Positions 3 through 64,000 of a stretch of DNA of 64,000 nt are shown here, piece by piece. Each line of letters starts with the position of its first letter. Position 1 is the stretch's first letter. A model generated the notes under the pieces. The model saw only the letters and a list, made by a program, of their open reading frames with translations. It was not told where the DNA came from and made no database searches. The translations under genes and the position numbers were made by a program. Source of the stretch: Naegleria gruberi (Eukaryota); NCBI GenBank assembly GCA_000004985.1, contig GG738845.1. The stretch is one strand, 5' to 3'.

Positions 3-3000
3 GTTATTCTAGATCCAACATTGAAGAATTTTGTATTGGTTCACGTACGTCAACTGATGAACACAAAGAATATCGAACATTCTCACGAGTTTGAAATTTT
101 ACTTACCTATTTTACTGAAGTTTTTCCAATTATTATGGATAATCCAACCCAACAAAATTTACAACTGCTAATGGAAATGTTAGCAGCTGTGCAGAAGGGT
201 TTATGTGCTTCAAACAAGAAATTATTACAAACACAATTCAGGGACAAGCTTGACAAGTTTATGCACTTGCTCAACTTGGACATTCCAACAATTATTCCAC
301 CAAATAATACAGAATTTATCACAAGGCACTGTTTAGCTATGGAGGTAATAAGAACACTTACTACACTCATTTCCGATAACTCTAAATCAAAGCACCACTT
401 TAAAAGCATTTTAGGCTATGACACTTTCAAGAATTTGATTTTACATTGTGAGCAAAATAATCCATCACCAGAAATTTTCAATGTACTTTTTGACATGTTG
501 GCAGATGGCGAATTTGATAGCGAGACAAAATATGCAATTCAAAATCCAGATGTAGCCCGTTTAATTTTCCATCTATCAATGCACTGTGAACTGAGCTATA
601 TTTCTTCATTGGTGGCCAAATTTTCTTGTCTTGTTCAGAAATCTACAAACAATAGAAATATTTGTTGTTCTGTAGGGTTAATTAGCTCTCTATTAGACTT
701 ATTGACAAGATTTGAAAAGGAATCATTCTCTGAAGAAAAGACAGTGAGCGATATCGTAAATCTTATTGAAACTATTGGAAGACATTCAATTACTGTCAAG
801 GAATTGAAAGGGTTCCTCGGTCTTATTAAGAGACAATCAGATAGAGATCAATCAGACTTTCTGGCACTACTCTTGAAAGCCCTTAAAAATATGACTCAAA
901 GCTCTCCTGATGCCTTTTTCGATTTCAATGGCACCAACTCAGGACTTGTCTTACCAACTATTGATAACAGAGTATGGCCTAACACTAAGGGATATTCTGT
1001 TTCTATGTGGGTGAGAGTTGAAAGTTTTGTAGAGTCTAGACCATCCGCTCCTAATTCTAATCCAATGACTCCTATTTCCTCTGTAAAGAGTTTATCGTTC
1101 ACTACAGATCTACAAAGAAAGGAATCCTTCCAATTCATTCCACGTTCAACTACATACAAACCAAGATTGATCAGCTTCTATAATTCTGAAGGTCAAGGAT
1201 TTGAAGTATATTTTGAGGAAAATTCTATGAATATTGTTGTTCAACATTCCCAAAAGAAGCAGTACATCGAGAAGTTAAATTACAAATTCGAGGAAAAGGT
1301 GTGGTATCATATTGTATTAACTCACAGTTATGGAAAAGGACCTTTTTCGTTCTCTAAGAATGAGTTGAGACTGTATATTAATGGCTTGTGTGTTGAGCCT
1401 AAAATCCAACTCAAATATCCAAGTCTTCACAAGCCTTTGGATAAATGTATGATTGGTTCTAGCTATCTGGTTAATGAGAGCTTACAACAAGGAAGCACAC
1501 CAACACATAAGCGACAAGCAAGTAGCTCTAATTCTGAAAATCCAAACTTTAATGGACAAATGGGTACTATTTGTGTATTTGATGAGACCTTACTTCCAAA
1601 CATTATTCAATTAATTTATAACTTGGGTTACAATTATATGAATTGCTTCCAACCTACAGATTCTGTTCTAGCTAAACAATCACAAGAATACCTTCAATTA
1701 TTTGATGGATCTATTACACAAAAGATCATATTGTGTTATAGTCCAAAGGCCAGAGCAAACTATAATAAGATATGCCTTAACAATACTCCTGAAGCATTCT
1801 ATCAACTTCAATTACATAATGGTTTGGTATCAGGTGTTGAAAATGTTCCACAAATCAAGTCAGATATCCATCAAGCCATGCTCAACTCGAGAATTTTGAA
1901 TGGTACTCAACTTTGTGTAACACACAATGCAAAAGATATTATTGGTTGTTTGGGAGGTATCAAAGTCTTGTTCCCTCTATTTTTACAAATGGATCGTCTT
2001 TCCCATACAGATCAAGTTATTAGCGAAAAAGCCGACCCATTCCTTGTTAATACCTTATTTTCATTGATAATAGATTTATTGAGTGCTCACAATGACAACT
2101 TGGAAGATATGGCACGTTGCAGAGGTTTTTTAGTTATTAGTTTCTTGTTGAAACAAATATCTCCTCAACATTTAACACGTAATACTGTTGCATTGATACC
2201 TTCACTTCTCTCTTGTGCTAAAGATCACTCAGTGTTGTATTCTGATATTGTGAACTACCTTGTATTTAATTTTAGATTGTGGATTTATACTGACGTTGAA
2301 GTTCAAAAACTATTATTCCAACAATTATTGGATATTTCTAATGAAAAGAAGGATAATTTCACTAAAATTAGGGAAATTTTGGGTGTTCAAAAATTGTTAG
2401 ACCTTATGAGATGGTTTTATTGGTATGAAAGAGCCAAATCTAATTCTACAGAAAGTGAATACCAGTTGGGAACAGAAAAAATTTGTAATCCAGCCACAGG
2501 AGCTGTTTTAGGTCAAAGACCAAGTCAAGAAAATATCTATGAAATCAGACAAAAGCTTACAAAACTTTTGAAATGTCTGACATCAAAATCAGCAGAAATT
2601 GTTATTGTAAATAATGATGAAAGACTAACAACCACAACAGGTACTGTACTCACTACAGCAACCTCTATTTCATATCCAGAACTAGAAGCCATCATTAACT
2701 TATTGGCTGATTGTAATGATAATATGCAATATTCAGATGTAGTTATCTTTGTTTTGGAGCTTTTACTTTCTCCTGATGGAGTTGTAATTGCAGACATGTT
2801 AGCGAATATGAAAGCCTACCAAGTTTTTGTTCAATTACTCTATACTCATCACGAACCAACAAGACTCAACATTCTGAAATGCATCGGCCAAATGTTAATA
2901 CTCAATCCAAAACTAAGACAAAGAGTTTTTGCAGAGACTTCTTATGGTTTTTCTACTATTACCAATATTCTTACCATTTTCAATATTACCATTCAGACCT

Positions 3001-6000
3001 ACGGAGTTTTGAGGGATATTTTCCTTGGATGTATTTCTTTGAATCAAAGGGATATCCTTGAATTTGATGGTTTTGAACAAACAGAACAAAGCTACAAAGT
3101 ACAAGCAGTGCTCCAACCAATATTCAGATTACTTGTTAATACCCAACCAAATGTCAAGCATCATATTCTTCAAAATTTTAAAATTGTTCTCAAGTCTAAT
3201 AGAGCCAAGGACTGTTTGCTACAACAAGTCGGATGGCAAGAGTGGTTGTTAAATATTATTTGTGTTTCAGGTATTTCTGATGCCTCTATTCCTTCTGATG
3301 TTGGTCAGTCTGCTCAGTTTGAACTTTGCAAAGATATTGTTATTGAACTTATTGCTATTTTGCTTTATCACTCTTTAAAAACTGTCAAAAAGGGATGGAG
3401 AGATATAGAAGATACAATTTGTCAAGTTATTCTTTTGAAAGATAGAGAGGATATTGAAGGTATAGAAGAAATATTGGGAAGTATTTATAAGAGAATTCTT
3501 GATGAATACATTTCTGACATTCAAGGAGAGAGAATTATTGCAAACTATAATGATAGAAATTCTCCAATACTTGACAATTTTGTTCACTTAGCTACATTCA
3601 TTGAGGAATATATGTTTTATTTTGATGCTATTTATCAAAGTGTCTCTGGTACATGGATGAGAAAGACAACAGAATCTGGTACAGGAGTTCTTGGCACACT
3701 GAGGAGTATTGTTGTGGGTGCTAACACAAATCGAGCTCCACAAGAGCCTGGAATTATGCCATTATCACAAGCAGCTCAACAAAATCAAGAAGATTTCGTT
3801 GTAATTGATACTAGTTCTGTGTCTGTAGGTTCTCATTCAGAAATTATTCCTTCAACTCCTGAAAGTAAGAGAGGTGATCAGTTATCATCCAATAGTCCAT
3901 CTACTGCTTCAAATCCACTGACATATAATGTTGAAGATGAAATCAATACTAGAAGAGATGAAAATAATAATTGGATTGATCTTCCAATAGCTGAAAAGCT
4001 TATAACAATACTCAGTGCTTGGAAACTCAATACAGTATCCAACTATAGTTCTCTTAGAAGTGTTGTTCAAGGAGGAAAAAGATTGAGAGATGGAGGTACT
4101 CTTAGAATAACGCTCAGACTCATTAGATATTGTTTGAGAGAGTCTCCTTCATTAGACTCATCTCTTTTAGACTGTATAAAGCGAATCAACCAGAGAGATG
4201 TGGAGAGTGAGAAGGAAATTTTAAGATTTTCTGAACTTTGGGCTGTTACTGGCGATATTGAGAATAATGATGACTTCCATACTCGTTTAATGTTTATTTT
4301 GGCCTTCTTGTTTGATATTTTAAGTAGACTTTTGGAAAAGAAACAAGAAAAGGAAGCTCTATTTGTTTTTATAACAATAAGAGAAATTTTCATGACAAGA
4401 AAAGAGTATTTGGAACAAGCGCTCACCACCGATGATGATAAATCTATTTTGACTGATGATCCTGTATTTTCCACAAAGAAGAAGGCTGATTTATCTGACT
4501 ATCTTCAAGTTATTCATTCAAAGAGCTGGAAATTTGCTTGGACAAGATTTTTCGTTCCAGCAGTGAGACTAACAGAGAAACTTGAATCTGCATTCCTGGA
4601 AGAAATTATTGTAAGAAGAAAATTCACTCTACACAGGCTTTATGATCAAATAAGGGAGGTAGAATCAGCAATGTCTGACTTGGATAAGAAAATGGATTCA
4701 GAAATCAGATCTACTTTGGAAAATATAAGAAGAGCTGAAAGAGAGAGAATCAAAAAAGAAAGAAGTTCCTATGAGGAGTTTGACTTACTAGCCTCTCATT
4801 ATTGGAAGCAAACCATGAGAAATGTGGCTGACGAAAGAGGTATTTGGGGTGGTCAAAAAGATTCAGTGAAATGGAAATTAGATAAGTGCCAAAACAGTAA
4901 ATTTATTAGAACAAGATTGGTAAGAAATTTCTCAGAAATAGACCACAAGGATGCTACCATCAAAAAGACTGACAAATCTGTAATTGTTGAAAATACTATT
5001 ACCAATAGATTATTGGAAATTAAGGAAAAAGGAAGTTTCTTTATTCCAAAACTTTCAATTATTAACAATGAAACTGAAGATGCTTCTGAAGATGGTACAA
5101 GTGAGATTACTGCCGCCACTATTTCAACACAACAACCATCCACCACCAATATTTCTGAAGATATACAAATCAACCAAAAACCAGTTGAAAGAGAAAAAAC
5201 TATTCTCAAAGATGTTGAATGTGACCTGATAAGTCCAATGGCTGGTTTCTCAGGAAAAATGGAAATTACAAGTAAGAGAATAACCTGGACACCAGATAAG
5301 GAAAATCATGCTTTGAATTTTGGTCTTGATAGTGAGAGAGTTTCCAAGTTGATTAAAAAACCAACAGAAAAGACATTCACACTTGACTCTATTGTAGAAA
5401 TTAGAATTATGAGATACAGACTGAGAAAAACAGCACTTGAATTTATTTTTGTTGATGAATCTTCCGTATTGTATAATTTTAATGTAAATGAGAGAAACAA
5501 AATATTCAACAAGATTATTTCTCAAAAGTGTCCAAACTTGAGAAATGTTGAAAAGTCCTTCTCTCCAATGGAAAACATACAAAGATCTCCATGGACTAAA
5601 AAGTGGCAGCTTGGAAAGATATCCAATTTTGATTATTTGATGATTCTAAACATGTACGCAGGAAGGACATTCAATGATCTCTCACAATATCCTATTTTCC
5701 CTTGGGTTATTGCTGACTACACCAGTCCAGTACTTGATTTTTCAAAGGAATCTACCTTTAGAGACCTCTCAAAGCCAATGGGTGTGCTCAACCCAGATAA
5801 GGTCAGAATTGTGGAAGAAAAGTACCAGACACTTGCCAGCGATACTTACACAACTCCATACCACTATGGTTCTCACTACTCTACATCAGCATATGTTACC
5901 TACTACTTAATTCGTTTAGAACCTTACACAACACATGCCAGAGTTGTTCAAGGTGGTAAATTCGATCATGCCGATAGAATGTTTGAGTCAATAACTCAAA

Positions 6001-41823: not shown

Positions 41824-44800
41824 ATGAAAGCCATCTCCAATGCCAAAACACGATTCAGTCGGCAAACACAAGATGGCCACAAATCGGATCAATTATTAAT
41901 TAATGATCAAATATTGAAAAATTCAGTATATGAATATGAGCGGAATGTATTATTATTATTCATGTTGCAACAACATTCGGAATTGTTGAATCAGAGTGAT
42001 AGGGAATATATTAAGAATATTAAAAGTGATGATATTGATCATGTTAATGAATTGAGTAATATTACAGATATTCATTACGTTATGAATCATTTAACTAGAA
42101 AACTTTCTATTGATTTGACAAAATTTGATTTGAATAAGAAGAAGGAATTAATTCAAGACACACAAATGATTCATCATCCTCCATCAACAACACAACAAAA
42201 CTTGGGAAAATCTCCAGGTATTAAAAAACCATTACCACTCACACCACAAAATGCTTTCGCAATTAATTCACAACAACAACAATTTGATTCTACTATTAAT
42301 TCATTGGACAATAATCCAGTTAGTATTATCAATACTTCTTCTATTCCTTCACCAACTAAAATTAATACATTTACCGAACCAATACTATCAACACCAACAA
42401 GTATTACAACTTCTGTTAATGAAAGTGGCACATTGTACCCAAGTATTACTACTCCTGTTAATGAAGTTTCCTCTCCAATTGCCGAGAAGAGAATTAAACC
42501 TCTTCCAAAGCCAGCCCTATTAGATACTAAAGAAATCATGTACACAACCATTATGGGAAGTACAAAGGAAAATACTGATCAATTTTGGAAACTTGATAGT
42601 TATAATGAGCTCAAATCGCTCAGTTATGAAATTTTATTATTAAATTCTAATGGTCTGGTAGATTTCAGTGGAAATAGAGAAAATTTGGATGCAATTTTGA
42701 ATACTGTTAGAAAATATTGTGGAGTTTCAAAGAATGAACATTTTGAGATGGTTAAACGAGTTACCAATTCTGCTTCATTTACCAATTCTCTAAATACAAT
42801 AGATAGTGTCGAATATTATCAAACTATTTCAAAAATTAAATTACAACCAAGTACAGATTCCAAAACTTCTCTCCAATTATGGAAACTCATTGGATTAGTT
42901 TTGAAGAATGAAAATTTAGATATCATCAAACAATATTCACAAGTTTTCTATAACAACTTGTTACTATTTTTGAAACAACAAACAAATATTAATTTCAAAC
43001 TGAATAACATTACATTTACCGACATGCAAAAACTGGAAGAATTTTTGAATGAGGAGTTTACAAATTTTGATGACAGCGATTCTATTAATGACATCATTCA
43101 AATTTACACAAAATTGAATTCTGACATTGTAACTCCGCTAATCAAACAAATACCTTCTACAGGTGATTTAATTCCCTACTTGTATCCTTTGAATATCAAG
43201 CTCTACTCTTACTTGTCAGATACTAGAGTGTTGAGCCTTTTAAAGCTGGCCAAGAGTGGTGAAATTGAGATACCATACGATATTGATGATGTTATGAATG
43301 ATGAAATTGATTTGAGCGACATCTTTATTGATCTTATTGAAGATGAAGAAGTAACCAAGAGTTTAAAGTTGCACCGTAAAGTATTGAACATTTCTGAAAC
43401 GATGGACATTATGTGCTATATTGATTCTGTGTTCAGAATGGAACAAAATTGTCAAACAGATACAGATCTACTTTTACTGTGTGATCGTTACCTTTTATGC
43501 CTTTTACAATACTATATCAAACATACCAAATTTTCAAATTATTCAAAAGAGGAACTCTCATTGTACAATAATGTATTTAATAATATGAGACACATTTTGG
43601 GTAATTCACTCATGGATTTCACATCTAGTTATACTATCGATCATGAAGTATTTTCCTCCCATCTCAAACTCTTTAAATATGTCTATTACATTATGCAAAA
43701 GAATGAAAATAATTTGACCAACTTGAGTACAGTATTTGACTATATCACCAAGCTTTCAATGAGAAAGCAATATGAAAGAATCAAATCTAGTAATATGCAT
43801 TCTGCTTCAGAACAAGCAGGAAGTAATAACATAATTGATGACAGTGTTGTATTGGATGAACTGGTCAAGTTTGGTAAAGATATCCTTGAAGAATTATCCT
43901 ACCAACAATCAACCTTCTTTACTTACTTGGGCTCTAAAGATTATTATCCAAATGCCTTTATCGATTCCCTGTACTTGAATTTGTCAAATTATTTGAAGGA
44001 TGTTCAGACAGTATTTTCAAAGTATGTTAAAACAGAAGTTTCTGGAGGAGTTTTTGAAATATTCGAAATATTTGAATCATTTTTGAAAATATTCAATGAA
44101 TACTTGTTCAATGATGAAGAGTTAGAGTTGACTGATTTGGAAAATATAAGAAAAGAATATCCATTCAAAATGTCAAAACTGTTCGAACCAAACATTTCAA
44201 TACTCAGAGTACCAATGAATAATTGGATGAATAACATTCAAAATCAATACTTTAAATATCTGGAAAATTCTGTAAAATTGGAAAAGTTTGAACCTATCAG
44301 TCAGGAGGTTATGTATTCCTCTTCACATGTTGACCTTTTCACATTCGTCAGACAGGGTTTACCAACTCTGTACAAGTTGTGCATGCCGAATGCTATGGAA
44401 TATTTCAGACATTTTAATCAATGCCTGTCTGGACTCATGCAAAGGTATTGTGTCCATATGGTTCATAACTTGCCAAAAGTTGAAGATTTTATTCCAAAAA
44501 AGATACAACCATTTTCTTCAATTACAGTAAACACTTCAGGTAATGGTGTTCTCAAAAAGCTAATGTCATCAGGAGAAACTGCTGACAACACCAATGGATT
44601 TATAACACCAAGATTTGAATCAAATGGTATTAGTTACGAAGAATTGTTTGTGAGATTGGCCAATTTGGTCAACACTAGAAGACAATATATCAAGGTTGTG
44701 AAGGAACTCATTGAAAAATCAGATAATTACCGCTTACTCTTTGTTGGTAAGACGAATACCAATAGTACATCTCTTCCAGCAACGTTACTCCCTATTGATT

Positions 44801-45459
44801 TTTATTCCAACTTGGAAGGTACATCAGAACTTTTGAAAGATTTCATCAAACAACTAACTGAAATAATAGGATGTAGAAATATCTATCACGAACTTTATAA
44901 TAATTTATTTGGAGAACTTTATTTGCCAACTGTTAAGGATATGACTCTTTCCAAAATGATTGAGGACTACTTTGAACCATGCTTGGAGTCTCTAGTAGAA
45001 ATGACAGATGATCCAAACTGTGTAGAGTGGATTATTATGTCCATGTTTAGACATTTAATCAAATCCTTACAGTTTATCATTATTGATGGATACATTTCTC
45101 AAAATGAGTTCCATTTGAATAAGAGGCAATACAGTGCTTCCGATACAAAATATTTCCTTTCTGATTTGAGTTTGATTGAGAAATTCTTTTATAGTGATGG
45201 AGAAGGTATTTCGGATTGGAATTTTATTATTCAGACAACTGGTTTCTTGAAGAATGTGATTGCGAATGTAATGGACAAAGCTTCAGAATATTTAATCAAT
45301 GGATCAAACCAAAATCCAGCTTTTGAAACTCTCTCAGCAAGTATCACACCAAAAACTCCATTTTCTAAAAATGTTGTCTACAAGGTTTTATTTAATAGAA
45401 CTGATCTGCATGCTAAAAAGTTCATTAAGAATCACAAATTCAGGTATGGCTATGAATAA
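41824..45459 (+). CDS. hypothetical large protein (1211 aa)
   Basis: Single ATG ORF starting 28 bp after the previous gene's stop. An Asn/Ser/Thr-rich linker is followed by a long alpha-helical-looking region. TAA stop with AATAAA. No motif recognised. Confidence 0.6.
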   Translation: MKAISNAKTRFSRQTQDGHKSDQLLINDQILKNSVYEYERNVLLLFMLQQHSELLNQSDREYIKNIKSDDIDHVNELSNITDIHYVMNHLTRKLSIDLTKFDLNKKKELIQDTQMIHHPPSTTQQNLGKSPGIKKPLPLTPQNAFAINSQQQQFDSTINSLDNNPVSIINTSSIPSPTKINTFTEPILSTPTSITTSVNESGTLYPSITTPVNEVSSPIAEKRIKPLPKPALLDTKEIMYTTIMGSTKENTDQFWKLDSYNELKSLSYEILLLNSNGLVDFSGNRENLDAILNTVRKYCGVSKNEHFEMVKRVTNSASFTNSLNTIDSVEYYQTISKIKLQPSTDSKTSLQLWKLIGLVLKNENLDIIKQYSQVFYNNLLLFLKQQTNINFKLNNITFTDMQKLEEFLNEEFTNFDDSDSINDIIQIYTKLNSDIVTPLIKQIPSTGDLIPYLYPLNIKLYSYLSDTRVLSLLKLAKSGEIEIPYDIDDVMNDEIDLSDIFIDLIEDEEVTKSLKLHRKVLNISETMDIMCYIDSVFRMEQNCQTDTDLLLLCDRYLLCLLQYYIKHTKFSNYSKEELSLYNNVFNNMRHILGNSLMDFTSSYTIDHEVFSSHLKLFKYVYYIMQKNENNLTNLSTVFDYITKLSMRKQYERIKSSNMHSASEQAGSNNIIDDSVVLDELVKFGKDILEELSYQQSTFFTYLGSKDYYPNAFIDSLYLNLSNYLKDVQTVFSKYVKTEVSGGVFEIFEIFESFLKIFNEYLFNDEELELTDLENIRKEYPFKMSKLFEPNISILRVPMNNWMNNIQNQYFKYLENSVKLEKFEPISQEVMYSSSHVDLFTFVRQGLPTLYKLCMPNAMEYFRHFNQCLSGLMQRYCVHMVHNLPKVEDFIPKKIQPFSSITVNTSGNGVLKKLMSSGETADNTNGFITPRFESNGISYEELFVRLANLVNTRRQYIKVVKELIEKSDNYRLLFVGKTNTNSTSLPATLLPIDFYSNLEGTSELLKDFIKQLTEIIGCRNIYHELYNNLFGELYLPTVKDMTLSKMIEDYFEPCLESLVEMTDDPNCVEWIIMSMFRHLIKSLQFIIIDGYISQNEFHLNKRQYSASDTKYFLSDLSLIEKFFYSDGEGISDWNFIIQTTGFLKNVIANVMDKASEYLINGSNQNPAFETLSASITPKTPFSKNVVYKVLFNRTDLHAKKFIKNHKFRYGYE

Positions 45460-50792: not shown

Positions 50793-53700
50793 ATGAACAA
50801 CAATTCAAAGAATTCATCTCACTTGTTGGAACCATTCAAAGTCATTGGTCTGGTTACGAATCATGTTGTACCAGCTATTAGCTTTCAGTCATCAAACGGT
50901 TCTGCTATTGATTCGGATTTAATAGATGATGCTTTAATTTATTCTGCTATTGGAAATACATTTTATGCATACGGGGTATGTTTTTAGTAATAATAACAAT
51001 ATTGAACAATAGCATTTAACAAATTGTAATATCTTTGATTTTCGGAATTTAATGATGAATTTTTAATGATGAAATTTAATAGGTAAAATCACTTATTCAT
51101 ATTGATATTGGTCCACAATTACCAGCACCAATTTGTAATATGCTCGTTGAAAGACAATCTACACTAACAACACATAGTACCTCTCATCCAACTCAACGTG
51201 ATATTCTCTTTGTTGCTTGTGAAGAACACTCAAAGATTTATGTTTTACGTGGTGCTAGGGAATTGATAACCATTATTGATACATCAAAGGATATGACAAT
51301 TAAGAGTGGTAAAATAATACAATTACTTAAAATTGGACAATATTTATTAGTATGCTTTGAACATGCTATTGCAATTTATGATACATTCCAAATTGAAGAT
51401 CCTTTTGTTACTTTATGTGAATTGCCAAAGGATAGTACATTGACTTGTGCTATTCACTTGCAAACATATTTGGATAAATTAATAATAGGAACAAAAGAAG
51501 GTCATTTCATTTTGTACAATTTTAGAGTTGGAAAGGAAATTTATCGTTTTTCGAAACATTTAAATACCTTTTTGAAGGAAAAAAAGAAGATTAATGAGGA
51601 AGAAGATTTATTACACTCATTGTTAAATACACAAAATACTGATTCAAAGGATGATACTGTAAATGTTAGTGTTACATGCATCAAGGCATCTCCTGCTTTG
51701 GATGTTATTGCTGTAGGATTGTCATCAGGTCACACAATGTTGTATCATGTTAAATATGATCACATCATTAATGTTTTTAAACAAACTGGACCTGTTAGTG
51801 CCATTTCATTCAGAACAACCTCTCCAACAGTCAGAGAAGAACAACTCTTCAGTCAAACAGTCAATTCTGAAGATTCACTGGCAACAGGTAATCACACTGG
51901 TGAAATTTCAATCTTTGATTTGAATAATAATCAACTCATTCACAGAATTAAGAAGAATGACAGACATACAGGTCCAATCACTTGTTGTGAATTCTTACCA
52001 GGAGAACCATTCATGATCACTGCTTCCGCTGACAATGTAATGTGTACAGTTGTTTTTGATCGTGTTGACAAACCTCGTGAAGTTGTCTGTAGAATGGGAC
52101 ACAAAAAGGCACCAAAGATTATCAGATTCTACGATCCAATGGGTAATTACATTGTTACTGGTGGTGTTGATGGTCAAATCAGAGTAACTTCCCTTATTGA
52201 TCCAAAAGAAACAAGACAAATTTCACAAGCTGAAAATTCTCACTTGTGGAAACAAGCCAATAAGAACCAATCTCAAATCGATATTATGCCTGCAGTAACA
52301 GATATGGATATTTGTTATTTGAGACAAGACGACTGGAACAATCTTGCTTGTTGTCATTCCAACTTGAACCGTGTGACGTTGTGGAACATTAAATATCTCA
52401 GATCTGATAACCAAACTCTCTACAAGCCTGAACTCAAATTTGGTATTCCTCAATCAGTGGCACTCTCTATTTGTGGTAATTTTTCAGTAGTTGGTACAAA
52501 CAAGGGATATTTGGAAAAGTGGATTGTCCAATCTAAGAATATGAAACACTTGTATACAACAAATGATATCAAGAAGGAGTCTGAAGTTGAAATTAGAAAG
52601 GTTTATGATTTCAAGGGAAGACAAAAGAAGTTGAAAAATTATGTTACCAAGTTGGAAAATGTTGCTCACAACTCTTCCATCAACTCTGTTATCATTGATA
52701 ATACTAACACTAAGGTATGCAGTGGTGGACATGATGGACTTCTCAAGATTTGGAGATTTGATGCCGAAAAGGTTGAAAATGTCAAGGACCAATTAATTGC
52801 TAGTTTTGATTTGAAATCACCAATTTTAAAGATGGTCAAGAGTAAGAACTCTGCCTCTGCAAATTTTGTATCTGTTGCAACTGAAAACTTTAAGATCCAT
52901 GTGTTCGATTTAAATACTTGCAAATTAATTCGTACATTCCACGGTCATCATGTCAATAAGGTTAATGACATGTGCTTTACTCATGATAATCGTTATTTGG
53001 TTTCATGTGGTATTGATGGTTACATACTCATTTACGATATTTTAACAGGTCAATTAATTGATTGGTTGCTTCTTCCAAAACCAGCAACCAGTTTAGATTT
53101 CCATCCTGAAGGCTTATACTTGGTAACAACACACGTCGGATCAGTAGGTGTTTGTATCTGGGCTAATAAGGCAATTTTCGGTAATGCCTTGTTACAATCT
53201 GTTAATGCTCCAAAACCTATTGCTTTGCCATTCAGTGGTGATAGTATGTTTGTTACTGAGCGATCAACAGTTGATGTCAAACTTCTTGAAAATTCCACTG
53301 AAAATTCAAAGAAGAAGAGAAAGAGAGCCATGAAGATTTTGTCCAAAGTCGACGATTGGATGAAACAGGATGGAAGTGATAGTGATGATAGTTTATCTGA
53401 AGATAGTGACGAAGAAGAAGAGGATGTTAACAATGTAAAGAAGGCTAACAATGATCAAACTTCTATTTCAATTCAAGAACCAGCCAACTTTATCAAACTT
53501 TCTGGTTTGCCAAAGTACAAATGGCATTCTCTTACACATTTGGACGAATTAAGAAAGAGAAACAAACTTGATGGTAAGAAGGGTACTCTTGATTTGGAAG
53601 AATTAGATGTTTCAGGAGTTGCACCATTCTTCATTCCAACTGAACCAACCTTTGGTAAGAATATTAAATTTGCCGAGAAGTCAACCGAGAGCAAGATTTT

Positions 53701-54148
53701 ACAAAACTCATCTAACAAGATGAATAGAAAGGCCATGTTAACAAATCCACTCATTGCCAACATTAAGAAGGATAAGGATTCTAGCTCAAATAGTTATATC
53801 AATACCTTGAAATATATCAAGGAGTCTAATGTTAAACATGTTGATTTGGCTGTAAGAACACTCTCTGCCTTTAACCAATACGAAGAGTACAAGTTGATAC
53901 TCGACTTTTTCTTGCACTATTTGGAAGTAGAGTATACAGAATTTGATTTGATTCAAGCCATGATTAATTTATTCTTGCAAATACATGCCGAGATCCTTGT
54001 GGATGCCATTAGAGATGACGATCAAATCAGACAATTTGTGGATAGACTTTCATCTGCAAACACCAATTCTTTCAAATCTCTCGATGATATGAACAAGTAT
54101 AACCAATGTATGATTGATTATATGTCATTTGGAGGAGTCTTCATATAA
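50793..54148 (+). CDS. UTP21: U3 snoRNP / SSU-processome WD40 protein UTP21 (WDR36-like), 2 exons
   Basis: join(50793..50975,51083..54148), with a 107-nt GTATGT..AATAG intron. The N-terminal LEPFKVIGLVTNHVVPA aligns with yeast Utp21 FSPFRIIGNVSNGVPFA. Multiple WD repeats. The C-terminal region (LVTTHVGSVGVCIWANKAIF) aligns with the Utp21-specific domain. Confidence 0.8.
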
Positions 54149-55193: not shown

Positions 55194-56975
55194 ATGAATG
55201 AACAACAAATATTTATTTCGGAACAATTGGAACTTCAAGTTGATTCTTTGAACGAGTTGAAATATAAAAAAGTCTTTGCTAATGAAGAAATTGCCAAGAT
55301 TGTTCAAAAACGTACAGATTACTTGTACTTGTTGGCTTCATCACTTCCTAAGGAAGATTTATTACATCCATATTTATCACACATGCTATTCGAATTGAAT
55401 TTATTACAATTAATTAAAACTAGACTCAAATTGAATAAGAAGAAGAATAATGATTTTAATATTCACTTACAATTTCCATATAATCAATACAAGATTGGTA
55501 TTGCTAAATTTAGTACACAAATTTATCTTATGAAATCTTATATTGACTTCTGTATGCAATATCAATTGAAACCAAACTCTGCTTTTGACCAAGTTTTATC
55601 AAAACACTCTAATCAAGAACAATTGTGGTTATTATACTCTAAATTTGAATTTGAATATAATCAAGCTATTGATAGTGGTATTCAAATTTTAAAGAATGGT
55701 ATCAAGGCAATTCCACATACTAGTCAATACTTACACTTGGAATTATTGAAATTATACTTGATTAAAGCGGAATATGCTGAATTTAGAATGCTTTTCAATA
55801 GTGTATTAGAAAATTTAAATAATGTAGAATATGGATACTTTTTTGAAATTATTAAATTATTAATGTTCTATTATAGAGAAGAATTGACCAAGAATGATGA
55901 AGAACAAGATGATATGAGCGATGATGAAGAACCAACTTCAACTGAAAAACATGAATTCTTCACTGAAATGATTGAATTCATTCTTGAAAAGGTATTATTG
56001 AAGAATTATAGAAATGATGAAAAGTGCTTGTACGAAATTTTCAAGTTCAAACTGACCTATTTCAATAATAATACTGATTATGAAGAGTTAATCTCCAATA
56101 TGGAGAATATTTGCGATAGAATTTGTCATACCAGCAAAATGTATCACTATTACATGTTATTATTAATTGATATTTTTAATATTACAAAGAAGGTTGAATA
56201 CATTAATAGAATTCACTCAGTCTTTGGAAAGATGAATACTTTCAACTTGTTGACCTTTAGGACAATTTTAATTTATTCTAACATTTTATTATCTATTGAA
56301 GATAACTCTCAACAAGTTGTCAAAGTTTTGAAGCAATTACACTTGATTAACTCTAATCACTCTAGTGACTTTTTCAAGTGCTTACTCTTACTTTTAGATT
56401 TGACTAAATATAGCAGAGACTCTATTGATTATTCTGTGAAATTGGTAAATGAAAAGAGTGCTGACAATGAATTCAAGATTCAATTCTATGAACAATTATT
56501 TACCAATATTTCTAAATCAGTATCACAAGAACAACTCCAACATTTATATTTGGATGGTATTAAGAATACAGGAAACTCACACGAAATCAAAAAGTTATAC
56601 TTTAAACATATTATTGATAATGTGGCACAAGGCGATTATCAAAAATTGGACAAGTATGTGAAATTAATTCTCTCCCTACCACCAAATTCCCATCAAGTTT
56701 ATCAAATGATGATTACTTACATTACCAAACATTTGACTGGTTTGGAATCAGCAAGTTGTGGCAATTATCACTCACTGTTAGGATATTTATATGAACAACA
56801 AATGGTTGAAAATAGACATGATTGGAAAGTTTACATTCAATATATGCAATATTTAAAGAAACAAAATCGTTTGAAGAATATTTCATCAGTTTACCAAAAG
56901 GCTGTTAATGCCTTGTCTGGTAAATCAGAAGAATTATCAGCTTTTGTTCAACATTATGATAAATATGTTAAATAA
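55194..56975 (+). CDS. UTP6: U3 snoRNP protein UTP6-like (HAT-repeat protein)
   Basis: 593 aa, the size of Utp6. The N-terminal pattern (EQLELQVDSLNELKYKKVFANEEIAKIVQKRTDYLY) matches the Utp6 N-terminal domain (E..L..LE.L.....F...EI..I...R..FEY). The remainder is a helical-repeat region. Confidence 0.6.
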   Translation: MNEQQIFISEQLELQVDSLNELKYKKVFANEEIAKIVQKRTDYLYLLASSLPKEDLLHPYLSHMLFELNLLQLIKTRLKLNKKKNNDFNIHLQFPYNQYKIGIAKFSTQIYLMKSYIDFCMQYQLKPNSAFDQVLSKHSNQEQLWLLYSKFEFEYNQAIDSGIQILKNGIKAIPHTSQYLHLELLKLYLIKAEYAEFRMLFNSVLENLNNVEYGYFFEIIKLLMFYYREELTKNDEEQDDMSDDEEPTSTEKHEFFTEMIEFILEKVLLKNYRNDEKCLYEIFKFKLTYFNNNTDYEELISNMENICDRICHTSKMYHYYMLLLIDIFNITKKVEYINRIHSVFGKMNTFNLLTFRTILIYSNILLSIEDNSQQVVKVLKQLHLINSNHSSDFFKCLLLLLDLTKYSRDSIDYSVKLVNEKSADNEFKIQFYEQLFTNISKSVSQEQLQHLYLDGIKNTGNSHEIKKLYFKHIIDNVAQGDYQKLDKYVKLILSLPPNSHQVYQMMITYITKHLTGLESASCGNYHSLLGYLYEQQMVENRHDWKVYIQYMQYLKKQNRLKNISSVYQKAVNALSGKSEELSAFVQHYDKYVK

Positions 56976-57324: not shown

Positions 57325-58377
57325 ATGAAAACATCACAACTCTTTATTAAACCAAAATTAATTTTCGGAAAGAATTTTTCATCATGTCAACAACTTTTTA
57401 AAACAACAATATCACAACAATCCATTAGATGTTTTTCAACAAGAAATTTACAATTGGAACAACAAAATAAGCCTTCCATTGATAAAATTTTACAAAAGGA
57501 TTTTCCATCATCAAAGAAGGAGGCAACAATAGTAAATCAACCACCAAGAGAGACACTTTCATCGTTTTTTAAATCACCATTTCTCAAGAGGGATAATGAA
57601 CAAGAGGAATATCTTGGACCAATTCGTGAAATGATTTCTGTGAGTATGAAGGAAGTTCCTACAGGAGCACTTATTGCTACAGGTGTTGCTATTTTACCAG
57701 TTATGGTTGGTGCTGCATCCTTCTATTTTTCATCACTTCCTGCCTATGTTTTGTTTGGATATCAACTCAATTATTCTTCTACATTGTTAACATTGTTGGG
57801 TGCTTCACATTTGGGATTTTTGTTTGCTGATTATGTGCATCCAGCAAAATTCAAGTCTTACATCATGTCACAAAATACTAATTTTGATCCAACAACAGCA
57901 GCAAAACAAGAGGAAGTGGATATTAGCAAGGAATTGGAAAAGAGAAAAACAGCCCATACTGTTATGAGATTTGTTCTCTTCTCGTTTTGTCAATTGGTTG
58001 CCTTCTCTTGTTTGGCACTTCCAGTTGTTAAATCCTCATTATTATTGGCTGGTACATTTTCAATCTTGTCATATTATGATGCTGTAATGACAAGTCGTGG
58101 TTTGGCTCCAAACTGGTTCACTTCACTCAAGGTGCCAATCACCATCGTCCTTGTTGCCACAATTCTTTCATCATTATTCTTCTATCTGATTTATGGAGCT
58201 ATGGAACAATTTGATGAAGATACCGAAAAGGAATTACAAAAATTCGAAGATTCACGAAAGAAGGGAGGTTTGAGAGAAACTATCAACTTTGTTGAAGAAG
58301 CCAAAGCAAAGAAGGAACACCTTGTTCAACTCTCAGAACAAAAGCAAAAACTTTTGGAAGGAGTCAAGAAGGAATAA
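57325..58377 (+). CDS. membrane protein, possibly mitochondrial (hypothetical)
   Basis: 350 aa. The N-terminus is basic and hydroxylated, presequence-like (RCFSTRNLQ). It is followed by several hydrophobic segments and a charged C-terminal helix. Confidence 0.5.
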   Translation: MKTSQLFIKPKLIFGKNFSSCQQLFKTTISQQSIRCFSTRNLQLEQQNKPSIDKILQKDFPSSKKEATIVNQPPRETLSSFFKSPFLKRDNEQEEYLGPIREMISVSMKEVPTGALIATGVAILPVMVGAASFYFSSLPAYVLFGYQLNYSSTLLTLLGASHLGFLFADYVHPAKFKSYIMSQNTNFDPTTAAKQEEVDISKELEKRKTAHTVMRFVLFSFCQLVAFSCLALPVVKSSLLLAGTFSILSYYDAVMTSRGLAPNWFTSLKVPITIVLVATILSSLFFYLIYGAMEQFDEDTEKELQKFEDSRKKGGLRETINFVEEAKAKKEHLVQLSEQKQKLLEGVKKE

Positions 58378-58534: not shown

Positions 58535-59329
58535 TCACATGGTTGTATTCAAAGTATTCTGAAGTGCCATTGAAACTAAATCATTGTCTAGGGCAACCTT
58601 GACAAATTCGTCTCTTGAAATTGAGCCGTCCTTATCTGCATCCAATTTGGCAAAAAATTCATTTGAGAATTCTTCTACTGTCTTTCCACATTTTTGAAAT
58701 TCCTTTGGGAAACTTCTGTAAAGTTGAAAAATCATTCTCTCCACTTCATCCTTGGTAATTTTTCCAGTCTTTTACTTAGCTTAATATATTATTCAATTTC
58801 ATTAAAACCTACTCTATCTGTATCGTAAACTTCAAATGCACTTTACAATTTGATTTTCCATTATTGATATATATTCAATGATCAAATACTCACAATAAGA
58901 CCTTCTCCTCAGCTGTTGCTCTCGTATATAATGTCATGGTCACAACATATTCCGCTATAGATACTATTCCATCATTATCCATATCAAAAAGACTAAGGTT
59001 CAACATTAATAGTATTTTCGATTTGGCCATTGGTTGTTCAATATTACACTTGAAAGACACACAACTTACAAATATAAAGAATCTACCATAGGTGTGGTTG
59101 GATTTGCCAAATTAACAATCTTGGCCAACTGTTCTCTCGGAATTGAACCATAAGGAAAACGTTGTGCCAATGATTGAAATAATTTCCGCACTTCTTCCTT
59201 ATCCAAATTTAAGGCCTTACACACTCTGCTTATTTCCTGCATTGTTCGTTGATATGAGTGCAGGATTTTAATAATTAAGGTAAGCCACTACTCCACACAG
59301 AAAAAATCTGTTACGTACTGATGATTGTT
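58535..59329 (-). CDS. N-myristoylated EF-hand calcium-binding protein (calcineurin-B / CHP / NCS-like), 5 exons
   Basis: join(complement 59309..59329, 59070..59236, 58894..58992, 58813..58840, 58535..58768), 183 codons. Donors are GTACGT, GTAAGT, GTGAGT and GTAGGT. The product starts MGSQQSS... and contains EF loops DMDNDGIVSIAE, DTDRTGKITKDE and DADKDGSISRDE. Confidence 0.7.
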
Positions 59330-59581: not shown

Positions 59582-60538
59582 TTATTTTTCTTGATTTTCA
59601 TTGACTTGTTCTGTTGTTGTTGTTGAAGTCAAATCCAAAGTTGGGGTAGCTCTTTCAGAGAATTTGTTAAAAGAGGATATCAGTGTTTCAATCTTAGGGT
59701 ACAAATTAGTTCCATTAGGACTCTTAATTTCTCTAAATAAAGTGGTAAATCTTTCTGGAGCAACTCGGTCATATATTGGCATTACCCAATCTCTCATCCA
59801 AGTACTATTTTCCAAAGGTGTGAATGGATCAAAACGACCAACATGTATTGAGTGTGCAACAGCAATAGAAGCACCAATAAAACCACTTCTAACAATCTTT
59901 TTGAAAGGAGAAGGTGTTCTATAGAGCATACCTGCTAACATACCAGCAAACAAGGCATTAATTGGTGGATTTTTCATTTCATCATAAACTTCAACACCTT
60001 CCTCTTCATTAGCAAGTTCTCCGTTTTCATTAAAATTAAAAGTAGAAAGATTTGAAATATTATCTTGTGCTTCCTTCTCTTCACGATTCTTCTTATCTTC
60101 ATCATTTTCTGGTACTTTACCCAAATAATTCATTCCGATATCAACAAAGTTATAAAAAAGCATGGCAGCAGCAACACTATTGGCAAGTTTTAAACTTCTT
60201 GCCAATGAATGGTTAAGAACGGCATTAAAACGAACTTTTAAAGAACCTCCTTGACCAAATCTAAGACCATGATAAGCTCCTTGTACTGCACCCAATCCCA
60301 AACATCCTATATATACTCTACCGACAAGATTCATAGACTTTTCCAAAATTCTATTGTTGTCTTGTTCATCAAGTTCTAAATATTCTGGAGGAGGAGTGTT
60401 TTGGTCAAAGTGATATTCTGCTGGAAGGGCTTGTTGTTGTGTTGTATAGGTACGTAAATTTCTCAGGAAATCAACACCACTTTTTGGCTGTTGTTGTTGA
60501 TGATGTTCTTGAGTGGATGATGAAGTATCGGAAGACAT
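59582..60538 (-). CDS. Tim17/Tim22/Tim23-family preprotein translocase-like membrane protein
   Basis: A GxxxG-rich TM pair (GCLGLGAVQGAYHGLRFG ... AAAMLFYNF) and a second TM pair (ALFAGMLAGMLY ... GFIGASIAVAHSI) are separated by an acidic loop. Start taken at the internal ATG (MSSDTSSS). Confidence 0.5.
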   Translation of the reverse strand: MSSDTSSSTQEHHQQQQPKSGVDFLRNLRTYTTQQQALPAEYHFDQNTPPPEYLELDEQDNNRILEKSMNLVGRVYIGCLGLGAVQGAYHGLRFGQGGSLKVRFNAVLNHSLARSLKLANSVAAAMLFYNFVDIGMNYLGKVPENDEDKKNREEKEAQDNISNLSTFNFNENGELANEEEGVEVYDEMKNPPINALFAGMLAGMLYRTPSPFKKIVRSGFIGASIAVAHSIHVGRFDPFTPLENSTWMRDWVMPIYDRVAPERFTTLFREIKSPNGTNLYPKIETLISSFNKFSERATPTLDLTSTTTTEQVNENQEK

Positions 60539-60728
60539 TTTTTTTATCGGAGACTCAATCAATTCTTGTTATTTTATTAAATATTAAAAATAATTTTGAT
60601 TGGGTAAAGAGAAGAAATGTGAAAAAATTTAACAATTCAAACTGTGCAGCAAGTAATAATGCAAATAATAACTTTTTTAACAAAGAATCGAAAAGAAATA
60701 ATATGTTTAATCCAATGCAAAAACAAAC

Positions 60729-60958: not shown

Positions 60959-61387
60959 ATGAAGAAACAATCAAACACCAATGTAAATACATCGACATCA
61001 TCAATAAATGCTCCATCCTCAAATAATCAATCAACAACATCATCGACCAGTGGTGGTAATAATCCAAGAAAACCTAGAGAAAATATTTTAGACTTGAATC
61101 AATATATTTCTAAACAAGTTTTGGTTAAATTTATCGGAGGTAGAGAAGTTTATGGTACACTGAGAGGATTTGATAATATGATTAATTTGGTTTTGGAAGA
61201 TTGCTATGAATTTATTAGAGATTTACAAGATCATCACAATAGACAAACCGATGAAAATAACAAACAATATGTAAGAAAGCTAGGAATTGTAATTTGTAGA
61301 GGTACCTCACTGATGCATTTGTGTCCTGTCGATGGTACAGAAGAAATTGAAAACCCTTTTGAAGATAATGAAGATGGTAATGAATAA
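60959..61387 (+). CDS. LSM7: Sm-like protein LSm7 with Ser/Asn-rich N-terminal extension
   Basis: ENILDLNQYISKQVLVKFIGGREVYGTLRGFDNMINLVLEDCYEF ... RKLGIVICRGTSLMHLCPVDGTEEIENPF aligns along its length with LSm7 (ILDLSKYIDKTIRVKFQGGREASGILKGFDPLLNLVLD ... LGLVVCRGTSVVLICPQDGMEAIPNPF). Confidence 0.85.
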   Translation: MKKQSNTNVNTSTSSINAPSSNNQSTTSSTSGGNNPRKPRENILDLNQYISKQVLVKFIGGREVYGTLRGFDNMINLVLEDCYEFIRDLQDHHNRQTDENNKQYVRKLGIVICRGTSLMHLCPVDGTEEIENPFEDNEDGNE

Positions 61388-61582
61388 AATAATATTTTAA
61401 TTTATTATTGCTTTAATTATTATTATTAAAATTAATTGTTGATATTAAAGAATAATGATTAATTTTAAATACAACAATTGCACAAAATAATAAACAATTT
61501 ACTACTAAACAAAGCCTTCACTTCTAAAATTCGCCTATTTTATCCAATTAATCGGACCATTCAATCTATTAACTTTAAAAAA

Positions 61583-62716
61583 ATGTTTAAAAATCAACTC
61601 CTCGTTCAACAATTCATCAAATACTCACAACGTAATCCAACAGTTGTTAGAAACGTTTTGCAATCTAGTATTCTCAGAGCATCATCACATAACAATGTTG
61701 TTTCATCATCAACTAAACAGTATCATACTAATCAAGTAAATAGAGTCTCCGATCGTGAAACTAATTGGGAAAAACAACATCGTGAAAGAATGGCTGCTCA
61801 AGAAAAGTTGTGGAAGGATGCTCCTGAAAAGGTTGTCAGATACTTTGTAGAATTTCAATTTATCAAGAATATGAATAGAAGTAAATTCCTTTTACTTTTA
61901 GTCATTTTGTTTGTTGGATTCTATGGTTATGATAAATTCTCAGGAAGTCACTCAATTGGTTCTGGTATTTATCAAATGATTAACGGACCAAAGAAATCCA
62001 CTACAATGACTAGTGAAGAACTTGCTCAAATGAATGGTGGTAGTGAGGATGATTCTCAAAATACTATTGCTGACAAGCCAGATCCACACAAAGTATTGAT
62101 TGAACGTATTGATCCATCCCGTATGAGAACATTCACATATTTAGATATTGAACATCAAGATTCTCGTTTTGAAAATAATGTAATTAAGGGACGTATAATT
62201 ATTGGATTGTATGATAAGGTTGTTCCTGTTACAAGTTACAATTTTGCCATGATGTGTCAACAAAAATTATTACAAAATACTATTTTCCACAGAGTTATTA
62301 ACAAATTCATGTTACAAGGAGGTGACACTAAACAAGGAACAGGCATGTCAAGTGTCCCATTTATTGGAAACCATGAAGCTAAGGCAGATTTACAAAATCA
62401 AATTAATGAATTAGTTATTAGGGATGCTTTGGGAAATGTTGTTCAATTCAAGGATGAAAACTTTGAATTGACACACTCTGAACCATACTTGTTATGTATG
62501 GCCAACAGAGGTCCAAACACAAATGGTTCTCAATTCTTTATTACAACTGTTAATACTCCTCATTTGGATGGTAAACATGTAGTCTTTGGTAAAGTTTTAC
62601 AAGGTATGGAAATTGTTGACCAATTACAAAAAGTCAGAACTTCCACACGTGACAAACCATTAGATTCAATTAAAATTACAGACTGTGGTATTATTCCAGT
62701 TGATGATTTGATTTAA
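61583..62716 (+). CDS. cyclophilin-type peptidyl-prolyl cis-trans isomerase with N-terminal presequence-like region and TM anchor
   Basis: C-terminal cyclophilin core motifs HRVINKFMLQGGD and MANRGPNTNGSQFFITTV ... GKHVVFGKVLQGMEIV. Upstream hydrophobic segment FLLLLVILFVGFYGY. Start taken at the internal ATG (MFKNQLLVQQ). Confidence 0.8.
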   Translation: MFKNQLLVQQFIKYSQRNPTVVRNVLQSSILRASSHNNVVSSSTKQYHTNQVNRVSDRETNWEKQHRERMAAQEKLWKDAPEKVVRYFVEFQFIKNMNRSKFLLLLVILFVGFYGYDKFSGSHSIGSGIYQMINGPKKSTTMTSEELAQMNGGSEDDSQNTIADKPDPHKVLIERIDPSRMRTFTYLDIEHQDSRFENNVIKGRIIIGLYDKVVPVTSYNFAMMCQQKLLQNTIFHRVINKFMLQGGDTKQGTGMSSVPFIGNHEAKADLQNQINELVIRDALGNVVQFKDENFELTHSEPYLLCMANRGPNTNGSQFFITTVNTPHLDGKHVVFGKVLQGMEIVDQLQKVRTSTRDKPLDSIKITDCGIIPVDDLI

Positions 62717-62790
62717 TAAATTTGTTAATTTAAGGATAAAGATGAATCGTTTCTGATGATTTCTTTTTTTAATAATTCGAAATTAAAAAA

Positions 62791-64000
62791 ATGTCCAAAG
62801 ATGAGTCAATCATGATGGAAGAAGAAATGTACTCACCTTCCATGACAATTCAACAAGATGAAGAAGATCACTGTACGTACACATTCTCTCCTATTGTTTT
62901 GATCAATTTTGAATGATGATGACAACAGTTAAACAATCAAAGACCAATCCAATAATCAAATCATCATCCCGAATTCAAAATATCCTCCTCTATATATTAT
63001 TAATAGTCTTTATATTATCCTCTTTGATAGGCTTGGTGTTGGCTTTTATTGATTTTTCATTCCCTGATCGGACCAACACTTCCAATCGATTCATTACAAG
63101 TAATAATCAAATAGTTATTGATTTACCTGTGGAAGCATTCATGATGGTCCTATCAATTGGATGTATTTGTATTGCCTTTATGATATTCATGTGGATTGGA
63201 TTGAAAAGGAGAGCCATTAATAATGATCAACAAGAAGGAAAGGAAGAATTGAAACAATTGAAAGATAAATTGGAGGTTGATGCAATGGTTTTGACATTTA
63301 CTAGACAATTTTTCAAGAGGGAAATCAAGTATTTAATTCCATTCATTATCATTGTTGGTTCATTGTTAATTGGATTCGATCAGACGAATTTATTTGTTAC
63401 GAATTCCATTTGTTTTATTTTGGGATGTTTTGCAGTCATTTTGGCAACCTATGTTAATGGTTTAATTTCGAATAGCAATTCAAGTATATATAGTGGAGGG
63501 GAGATAATTGGCTTATCTATTAGGTTTGGAAGTGTGATTGGATTTTTAACACTTGGTATTTCATTGATCATGTTAATTGCTTGCTTTTTACTCTTTTCAA
63601 ATTTTAATGCTGTACTGTCCTTTGTGTTGGGATGTAGTTCCATTTCATTGATTAGTCAATTGAGTGGATCTGTTTTTCAAAAGTCAGCTGATGTAACCAT
63701 GAATTTATTGGGGCAATATATTAATAGTAGTACGACAGGTCAAGAAGAAAATTTAACATCTGACCATAAGAGAAATCCAATTGTTATTGCCAAAATTGTG
63801 GGAGAACATATTGGTGGAATAGTAGCTCACTCTACTGATGTTATTCACTCGTTTGTAGCAATTGTTGTTCTCTCCTCAATTATTGGAAGTCAATACTTTG
63901 GAACGAATGGAGTTTCTCTGCCTCTCTACTTGGTTATTATAAACATTTTGACTTCTATTATTGGAATAGTTGTGGCTGCACTTTCTAATATAATATATCC
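62791..64000 (+). CDS. H+-translocating pyrophosphatase (V-PPase) family membrane protein, divergent and probably catalytically degenerate; 3' end outside window
   Basis: join(62791..62872,62929..>64000), with a 56-nt GTACGT..AACAG intron. The polytopic product aligns to the V-PPase core: ILATYVNGL against [41 protein letters not shown] against [63 protein letters not shown] against [31 protein letters not shown]. The conserved Asp/Lys residues of DVGADLVGK and DNVGDNVGD are substituted. Confidence 0.6.

Follow-up and report, generated by a model that had tools for sequence, protein, structure and literature searches.

Can a membrane protein keep the complete fold of a pyrophosphate-driven ion pump, and be maintained as such, once the residues that carry out the chemistry have gone? 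This question is raised by the last gene, NAEGRDRAFT_61527, of a 64,000-nucleotide (nt) stretch of DNA from Naegleria gruberi (contig GG738845.1, assembly GCA_000004985.1), here called the window, the end of which falls within the gene. The encoded protein (XP_002683247, EFC50503, UniProt D2UYN0; 748 amino acids, here P0001) is a relative of the membrane pyrophosphatases (M-PPases), a family regarded as uniformly catalytic and investigated for the development of drugs against protists, and is designated 'predicted protein' by NCBI and 'H(+)-exporting diphosphatase' in the automatic naming of UniRef. An original prediction, made from the window itself, had described a protein of the H+-pyrophosphatase (H+-PPase) type in which the residues coordinating Mg-pyrophosphate (Mg-PPi) are replaced, i.e. 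a pseudo-enzyme or a repurposed transporter scaffold rather than a PPi-driven pump. On the evidence presented here, the gene probably encodes a fast-evolved, non-catalytic pseudo-pump selectively retained as a membrane scaffold, and the label 'H(+)-exporting diphosphatase' on D2UYN0 is probably wrong.

The window consists of AT-rich (32.6% guanine plus cytosine, GC), gene-dense eukaryotic DNA, in which a tblastn search with the Percolomonas protein P0307 uncovered one M-PPase-related locus only (matched span 63123-63965). When 1.84 billion cluster representatives were scanned exhaustively with HMMER, D2UYN0, 100% identical over the overlap, was the sole match below 1e-30. The full product ranges from 748 residues (RefSeq, P0001) to 772 residues (P0151), the latter being the second member of the P0001 cluster and encoded on the metagenome contig L001 (ENA ERZ929261, run ERR1078381, PRJEB11402; 5680 bp), from which the DNA of the complete gene was taken. 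This contig is 99.4% identical to positions 61473-64000 of the window (14 substitutions and two indels) and carries the same upstream cyclophilin gene; its sequence indicates that a second N. gruberi-like strain was present in that metagenome sample, and it is useful for a population-level comparison at the locus. Once translated, 62913-64000 matches residues 1-362 of P0151 at 99.2% identity, and is 100% identical to P0001 wherever the latter covers it. The number of visible residues is 362 from the Met codon at 62913, or about 385 including exon 1, which comes near the 390 or so announced, and the part homologous to PF03030 begins only near 63123-63222.

Family membership and fold

Against the Pfam family PF03030 (H_PPase), the 358-residue fragment visible in the window reached 100 bits (E=1.7e-28) for a cut-off of 29.7, and the full-length protein 249.6 bits (E=9.9e-74) along profile positions 15-645 of 645. 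The fragment also matched the solved M-PPases of Vigna and Thermotoga (E of about 1e-10 to 1e-11), and the full-length protein aligned with Vigna VP1 from residues 143-742 to 153-754 (E=5.5e-44) and with the Na+-PPase of Thermotoga maritima (E=4.7e-39). The AlphaFold2 model, computed from a 50-sequence alignment, is all-helical with the helices in the expected order (predicted local distance difference test, pLDDT, 82.4; predicted template modelling score, pTM, 0.87). When compared to the PDB with Foldseek, all 36 significant matches were M-PPases, with template modelling (TM) scores of 0.74-0.82, the best structural matches being those of T. maritima (PDB 4AV3, 5LZQ; TM-score 0.78-0.82, root-mean-square deviation 3.5-3.9 Å), while fold and helix order are likewise those of the type I enzymes exemplified by the Vigna radiata H+-PPase (PDB 4A01; TM-score 0.78-0.80) and Arabidopsis AVP1. 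The PF03030 match and the predicted 16-helix M-PPase fold thus place the protein in the H_PPase superfamily; unlike the Vigna enzyme, it has an extra N-terminal helix in addition.

Membership of the functional membrane pyrophosphatases is another matter. The NCBIfam equivalog models (TIGR01104 and NF001951-NF001961) set 12 cut-offs and the Naegleria protein stays below every one of them, its best score being 239 bits against a cut-off of 546 (NF001960), with 196 against 652 for TIGR01104; the canonical pump P0307 of Percolomonas passes both (819 and 763 bits, respectively). By these cut-offs, the protein would not be counted as a functional M-PPase.

Changes in the catalytic, substrate and gate residues

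The registration of the motifs was checked with four alignments, namely phmmer against PDB chains, MAFFT, a BLOSUM62 pairwise map and BLASTP, which concur with one another and with the earlier hand alignment to the H+-PPase core, including the RNP(A/I)VIA block (nt 63771-63791). In all four, DVGADLVGK stands opposite DVTMNLLGQ (nt 63690-63716), (A)DNVGDNVGD opposite (A)KIVGEHIGG (nt 63792-63818) and DLF(G/E)S(Y/F) opposite DVIHSF (nt 63837-63854), with SDLFGSY of Vigna facing TDVIHSF. The three substitutions originally proposed are therefore genuine and mis-registration is ruled out, as is the location of the motifs beyond position 64000. The C-terminal motifs, which do lie beyond the window and were read from the full-length protein, are degenerate too.

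Residue roles and Ballesteros-Weinstein numbers were taken from Holmes et al. (2019; PMC6882861), and the position map was checked by several alignments. In the family, Mg2PPi is bound by a carboxylate cage and three Lys, the attacking water is activated by the Asp pair D6.43/D16.39, and the transported ion is held at a Glu/Asp/Lys gate (PMC6882861). The hydrolytic centre comprises 12 conserved carboxylates (PMC6882861), four of which are kept in the Naegleria protein (D5.61, D5.77, D16.31 and D16.39), one conservatively replaced (D6.39 by Glu) and seven lost: D5.65 is an Asn, E5.76 a Ser, D6.35 a Lys, D6.43 a Gly (Gly302), D15.61 an Asn, D16.35 an Ile, and D11.57 aligns with an Asn or a gap, the seven-residue NAGGIAE loop that follows it after transmembrane helix (TM) 11 being deleted. 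The water-activating pair is consequently incomplete, with D16.39 retained as D743 and its partner replaced. Among the substrate-binding lysines, K5.58 is kept (K257), and K15.64 and K16.38 have become R710 and R742, whereby the positive charge is maintained; more broadly, K12.50, K15.64, K15.65, K16.38 and K16.50 are all Arg, and K5.69 is a Gln. At the gate, D6.50 and S6.54 are kept and K16.50 is an Arg, position 6.53 is a His and 6.57 an Ala, so that the gate Glu is lost. Position 6.53 is a Glu in the nearest canonical relatives, as in the Thermotoga pump, from which the Naegleria protein, a eukaryotic one, further differs by its degenerate Mg/PPi cage and its added helix. Other changes affect the funnel (R5.50 to Gln), D6.26 (to His) and N534 (to Leu).

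In Vigna numbering, K250, D253, D269, R272-N273-P274, D294, D500, D723 and D731 are retained, whereas R242Q, D257N, K261Q, E268S, D279K, D283E, D287G, E301A, N534L, K541R, D691N, K694R, D727I, K730R and K742R are changed and D507 is lost. The claim that the Mg-PPi residues are substituted is accordingly correct for most of them, with D253, D269 and D294 as exceptions. Altogether, 24 of the 35 functional positions are altered, compared to none of the 35 in the Percolomonas-type proteins P0307 and P0226, and the positions lost are 96-99.9% conserved family-wide (PMC6882861 Table 3).

Out of 158 columns conserved at 90% or more in 49 canonical M-PPases, the Naegleria protein keeps 59, with nine of 22 acidic and two of ten basic ones, five of the eight basic changes being Lys to Arg. 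Hydrophobic replacements in conserved columns are mostly exchanges among Ile, Leu, Val and Phe, the glycines of the helices are kept, and the salt-bridge network of the funnel is mostly kept or conservatively replaced (K5.58, D5.61, E6.39, D6.50, D11.50, R12.50, R16.38, D16.39 and R16.50).

Maintenance of the reading frame and distribution

The open reading frame (ORF) of 772 codons, followed over its whole length on L001 (1441-3759), is free of internal stops, whereas the two alternative frames of this DNA contain 78 and 50 of them. Over 1086 nt, the window and L001 differ by three non-synonymous and four synonymous substitutions (pN/pS 0.21, one-sided P=0.047), which is a weak but consistent sign of purifying selection in the strain comparison. 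Two of the three non-synonymous differences fall in the N-terminal helix, and just two further amino-acid differences separate the strains in the remaining 410 residues. Since more than one substitution per site has accumulated without any nonsense or frameshift mutation, selection would have acted on the protein. Catalytic residues lost in a protein that appears to be maintained is what characterizes a pseudo-enzyme; every sequence-level test that was run agrees with this half of the original prediction, while its 'repurposed transporter' half stands as a hypothesis.

The degenerate protein is provisionally restricted to N. gruberi. In the exhaustive search with the fragment, through the 1.84 billion cluster representatives, no match fell below 100% and above 27% identity. 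A search of the 90% clusters with the full-length sequence gave no match other than the protein and, next, canonical pumps at 24%, and two scans of JGI metagenomes gave neither orthologues nor heterolobosean-type relatives. Besides, the 120 best of the 8000 matches to a canonical protist M-PPase included Percolomonas and no protein from Naegleria. Naegleria relies on PPi-dependent glycolytic enzymes, and the finding bears on whether this organism has any PPi-driven pump.

Origin from a heterolobosean pump

Among the proteins collected for the analysis, the best phmmer matches were P0226 (271 bits) and, next to it, P0307 of Percolomonas cosmopolitus (260 bits; MMETSP0759 transcript), all others scoring at most 207 bits, and BLASTP aligned the Percolomonas-type pumps over 770 columns at 27% identity, beginning in the extra N-terminal helix. 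With these canonical pumps of its own phylum (Heterolobosea), to which it is 27-30% identical, the Naegleria protein has in common its length, the 16-helix core, the N-terminal helix, a short loop, a TM1 of the PVEA/PVES kind and the signatures IGRQKML, IDGLLEGR, FGT(N/S)GV and YRP. The motifs GRQKML and FGT[NS]GV are confined to Naegleria and Percolomonas-type proteins among 322 proteins, IDGLLEG and PVEA being almost as specific, and the neighbour-joining (NJ) tree unites both with a bootstrap value of 84% when the other long-branch sequences are removed. Counted from their common node in substitutions per site, the branch leading to Naegleria has a length of 1.46 and those leading to the Percolomonas sequences 0.16-0.18, a difference of about nine times. 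Identity to canonical pumps of any domain is 50-58% for Percolomonas and 21-30% for Naegleria. The Percolomonas proteins, with all functional positions intact (E6.53, A12.46 type), differ further from their Naegleria counterpart by having neither the eight-residue insertion in loop 5-6 nor the seven-residue deletion after TM11. On account of the top scores, the exclusive motifs, the common N-terminal helix and the NJ grouping, the Naegleria protein is best taken as having come down vertically from a heterolobosean pump, with a drastic acceleration of its evolution.

The source of P0226 (gene 851-3094) is L003, a 33.5-kb eukaryotic contig of 28% GC (Logan SRR23962323), whose canonical M-PPase is 83% identical to the P. 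cosmopolitus transcript; L003 is probably part of a Percolomonas-like heterolobosean genome and its M-PPase is the best available outgroup to the Naegleria protein.

A probable pseudo-pump and the competing explanations

The explanation that is probably correct runs as follows. NAEGRDRAFT_61527 encodes an intact membrane protein, some 770 residues long and with 16+1 helices, that descends vertically from a heterolobosean M-PPase of the K+-dependent type. Its rate of evolution was about nine times that of the canonical relatives, and the chemistry of the pump would have been lost on the way. Because seven cage carboxylates (D6.43 among them) and the gate Glu are lost, the protein should be unable to run the hydrolysis-coupled cycle; judged by the established mechanism of the family, neither Mg-PPi hydrolysis by that mechanism nor PPi-driven pumping of H+ or Na+ would be possible. 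In the cytoplasmic funnel, seven carboxylates have disappeared, one in favour of Lys, and Arg has taken the place of five Lys, which would make the funnel far less acidic; the inner helix ring would still be polar. With the kept or conservatively replaced funnel network, a Mg-independent anion site or a passive pathway is conceivable. Tentatively, the protein may thus offer a non-energised site for ligands such as phosphate-type anions, or else a pathway for ions, within an endomembrane of the kind that houses Discoba M-PPases; a role as silent partner of an active pump appears less likely than this. Re-use of a scaffold is known in primary transporters from the ABC family, where CFTR is a channel and SUR a regulator. 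The pump fold is kept there and the energy coupling lost or changed; there is no homology with the Naegleria protein and the parallel is conceptual only.

Several observations weigh against the pseudo-pump. K5.58, D5.61, D5.77, D6.50, D16.31, D16.39 and the RNP motif survive, and the three substrate lysines are changed at most to Arg, so some binding of phosphate or PPi might persist. The AlphaFold2 model is driven by an alignment of canonical pumps, and the selection test by seven substitutions between near-identical strains. Finally, no orthologue from another species was found in a collection of about 15 billion proteins, and the drift of a lineage-specific gene towards loss keeps some residual probability.

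If the survival of these residues is given full weight, along with D11.50, the conservative D6.39E, four or five Lys to Arg changes and the retention of the whole fold, the protein could be regarded as a pump that still hydrolyses PPi, with Glu, Asn, Arg and neighbouring residues standing in for the missing Asp and Lys of an unorthodox active site. However, this is very improbable with seven carboxylates out of 12 gone, including D6.43 (Gly), D16.35 (Ile), D6.35 (Lys), D15.61, D11.57 and D5.65, with the NAGGIAE loop deleted and the gate Glu absent, these positions being conserved at 96-99.9% across the family (PMC6882861 Table 3), and with equivalog scores below half of the cut-offs. At the other extreme, the gene could be a functionless relic, i.e. 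a lineage-specific copy freed from selection and drifting to loss, perhaps unexpressed or a pseudogene whose frame is still open, in line with the very long branch, with catalytic positions behaving as unconstrained and with the failure to see an orthologue outside N. gruberi in the collections scanned. Such a relic is hard to reconcile with a 2.3-kb ORF devoid of stops in DNA of 33% GC, the other frames having 50-78 of them, with more than one substitution per site without nonsense or frameshift, which needs selection, and with conservative hydrophobic changes, preserved helix glycines, a confidently predicted fold and a pN/pS of 0.21; it is considered unlikely.

Becoming a non-catalytic partner is a common fate of pseudo-enzymes, and the Naegleria protein could in principle form a dimer with a canonical M-PPase present in its cell and modulate that pump. 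Obligate dimerization, cross-talk between the subunits and functional asymmetry are established for the M-PPases (PMC6882861), and TM10, TM13 and TM15 are preserved along with the rest of the fold. Yet a canonical M-PPase of N. gruberi was found neither in the window nor among the best 120 of 8000 matches, the open Naegleria literature makes no mention of one, and the interface residue K10.49 is a Leu in the phmmer alignment with Vigna and the PDB chains, making this option rather unlikely. Horizontal transfer from a bacterium with a degenerate M-PPase-like gene deserves the least credence. Indeed, the best full-length matches in the 90%-cluster search were bacterial Na+-PPases (24% identity), and an NJ tree including other degenerate proteins joins Naegleria to the metagenomic P0111 and P0090, but this grouping is explained by long-branch attraction, the identity being just 21-22%, and conflicts with the scores and identities, exclusive motifs, N-terminal helix and bootstrap support that tie the protein to the Percolomonas type; its composition and probable intron are also typical of the host genome. 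A broader proposal is that Naegleria, a diplonemid and several lineages of bacteria have each converted the M-PPase scaffold into a membrane protein that no longer hydrolyses PPi and has taken up another activity. This activity would be the Mg-independent binding or sensing of phosphate-type anions or a passive route for ions, and the recurrence of D6.43G, K12.50R, N15.62S and K15.64R would mark a new functional class and not decay; the proposal is doubtful.

No description of catalytically degenerate M-PPases or of this locus was found in the open-access literature; the sequence became public with the genome in 2010, and many pseudo-enzymes occur in other families. Should the pseudo-pump reading hold, a maintained full-length member without metal cage, nucleophile-activating Asp or gate Glu would represent a natural split of fold from function, and would indicate which residues are needed for the folding of the inner ring and which for chemistry alone. 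It also warns against automatic names such as 'H(+)-exporting diphosphatase', a probable misannotation worth correcting. Considered jointly, this protein and the other degenerate homologues suggest that the family has a non-catalytic branch, so far unstudied.

Other degenerate and unusual M-PPases

Among the top 150 relatives, further full-length PF03030 proteins display degenerate centres, with 7-16 functional positions replaced: P0052, P0098, P0090 and P0111 (bacterial or metagenomic), P0065 (Patescibacteria MEA3292917.1), P0101/P0197 (transcriptome of the diplonemid Artemidia motanka) and P0110 (eukaryote-like contig). They differ from the Naegleria protein by their sets of substitutions, by an identity of 20-22% and by PF03030 scores of 350-660 bits against 250, and to judge from these sequences they look like independent events. 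The changes D6.43G, K12.50R, N15.62S and K15.64R are common to P0052, P0098 and the Naegleria protein, which may be convergence or chance. P0052 (L004 8001-10094) occurs on at least 24 contigs, directly after PPDK and an HD-domain gene, and all the matches in a scan of GTDB with it were canonical pumps, none more than 41% identical; the P0098 locus is L007 148-2280.

Canonical protist M-PPases of 900-990 residues, namely P0003 (Hemistasia), P0004, P0006 (Diplonema ambulator) and P0152, have an N-terminal extension made of an extra helix and a luminal segment of 100-200 residues; the extra N-terminal helix seems to be shared among Discoba or protists. Those from diplonemids also have Cys within core motifs (DLCGKV, ADCVGDNVGD).

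Gene model and features of the window

The coordinates of the gene, its motifs and its neighbours are collected in Table 1. Upstream of the main ORF, the stretch taken as exon 1 is conserved in strain L001 with a single Met to Ile change, and was found without homology to other M-PPases; the 5' splice site that ends it reads GTACGT in the window and GTATGT in L001. Two introns are conceivable from there. As the long one, used by RefSeq, deletes the N-terminal helix that is alignable with Percolomonas, the short one, or else a start at 62913, is more likely to be correct, and the presence of this helix in both lineages argues that the RefSeq model XP_002683247, which splices it out, is wrong at its 5' end.

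Table 1. Features of NAEGRDRAFT_61527 and neighbouring genes in the window (positions in nt; cells left empty where nothing is reported)
Feature	Position	Strand	Remarks
Main ORF	62913..64000	+	Codons 1-362 of the 772-residue P0151; starts MMMTTVKQSK; extends past the window end
Putative exon 1 (MSKDESIMMEEEMYSPSMTIQQDEEDH..)	62791..62872	+	Open frame from ATG 62791, the start taken in the original prediction; RefSeq model uses it from Met13
Candidate short intron, 56 nt (GTACGT...ACAG)	62873..62928	+	Splice keeps the frame
Alternative long intron, 158 nt	62873-63030	+	Used by RefSeq XP_002683247; splice keeps the frame
Extra N-terminal transmembrane helix (NILLYILLIVFILSSLIGLVLAFIDF)	62979..63053	+	Precedes the 16-helix core; aligns with P0226 and P0307
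PF03030 (H_PPase) homology start, TM1-TM7 of the pump fold	63222..64000	+	Pfam: P0151 residues 104-763 match profile 15-645
TM5 end, degenerate substrate-binding motif	63657..63716	+	R5.50Q, K5.58 kept, D5.61 kept, D5.65N, K5.69Q
Loop 5-6	63717..63770	+	Eight-residue insertion YINSSTTG; E5.76S, D5.77 kept, D6.26H
TM6	63771..63860	+	RNPIVIA kept; D6.35K, D6.39E, D6.43G; D6.50 kept; 6.53 His; S6.54 kept; 6.57 Ala
PATROL1/Unc13-like protein	41824-45459
Utp21/WDR36	51140-54148
Utp6	55194-56975
DUF3429 membrane protein	57325-58377
Tim17-family protein	59582-60562	minus
LSm protein	60959-61387
Cyclophilin-type peptidyl-prolyl isomerase	61478-62716	+	Pfam Pro_isomerase on residues 237-404

The neighbours between 41824 and 62716 are ordinary eukaryotic housekeeping genes, among which no functional link to pyrophosphate metabolism was seen. 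The cyclophilin has an N-terminal extension of about 230 residues with a hydrophobic stretch (FLLLLVILFVGFYGY), the sequence of which suggests a membrane-anchored or organelle-targeted protein. Further upstream, three short minus-strand ORFs in different frames (58535-58744, 58890-59060 and 59066-59242) encode EF-hand-like segments (DADKDGSISRDEF, DMDNDGIVSIAEY) and look like the exons of one intron-containing gene for a calcium-binding protein.

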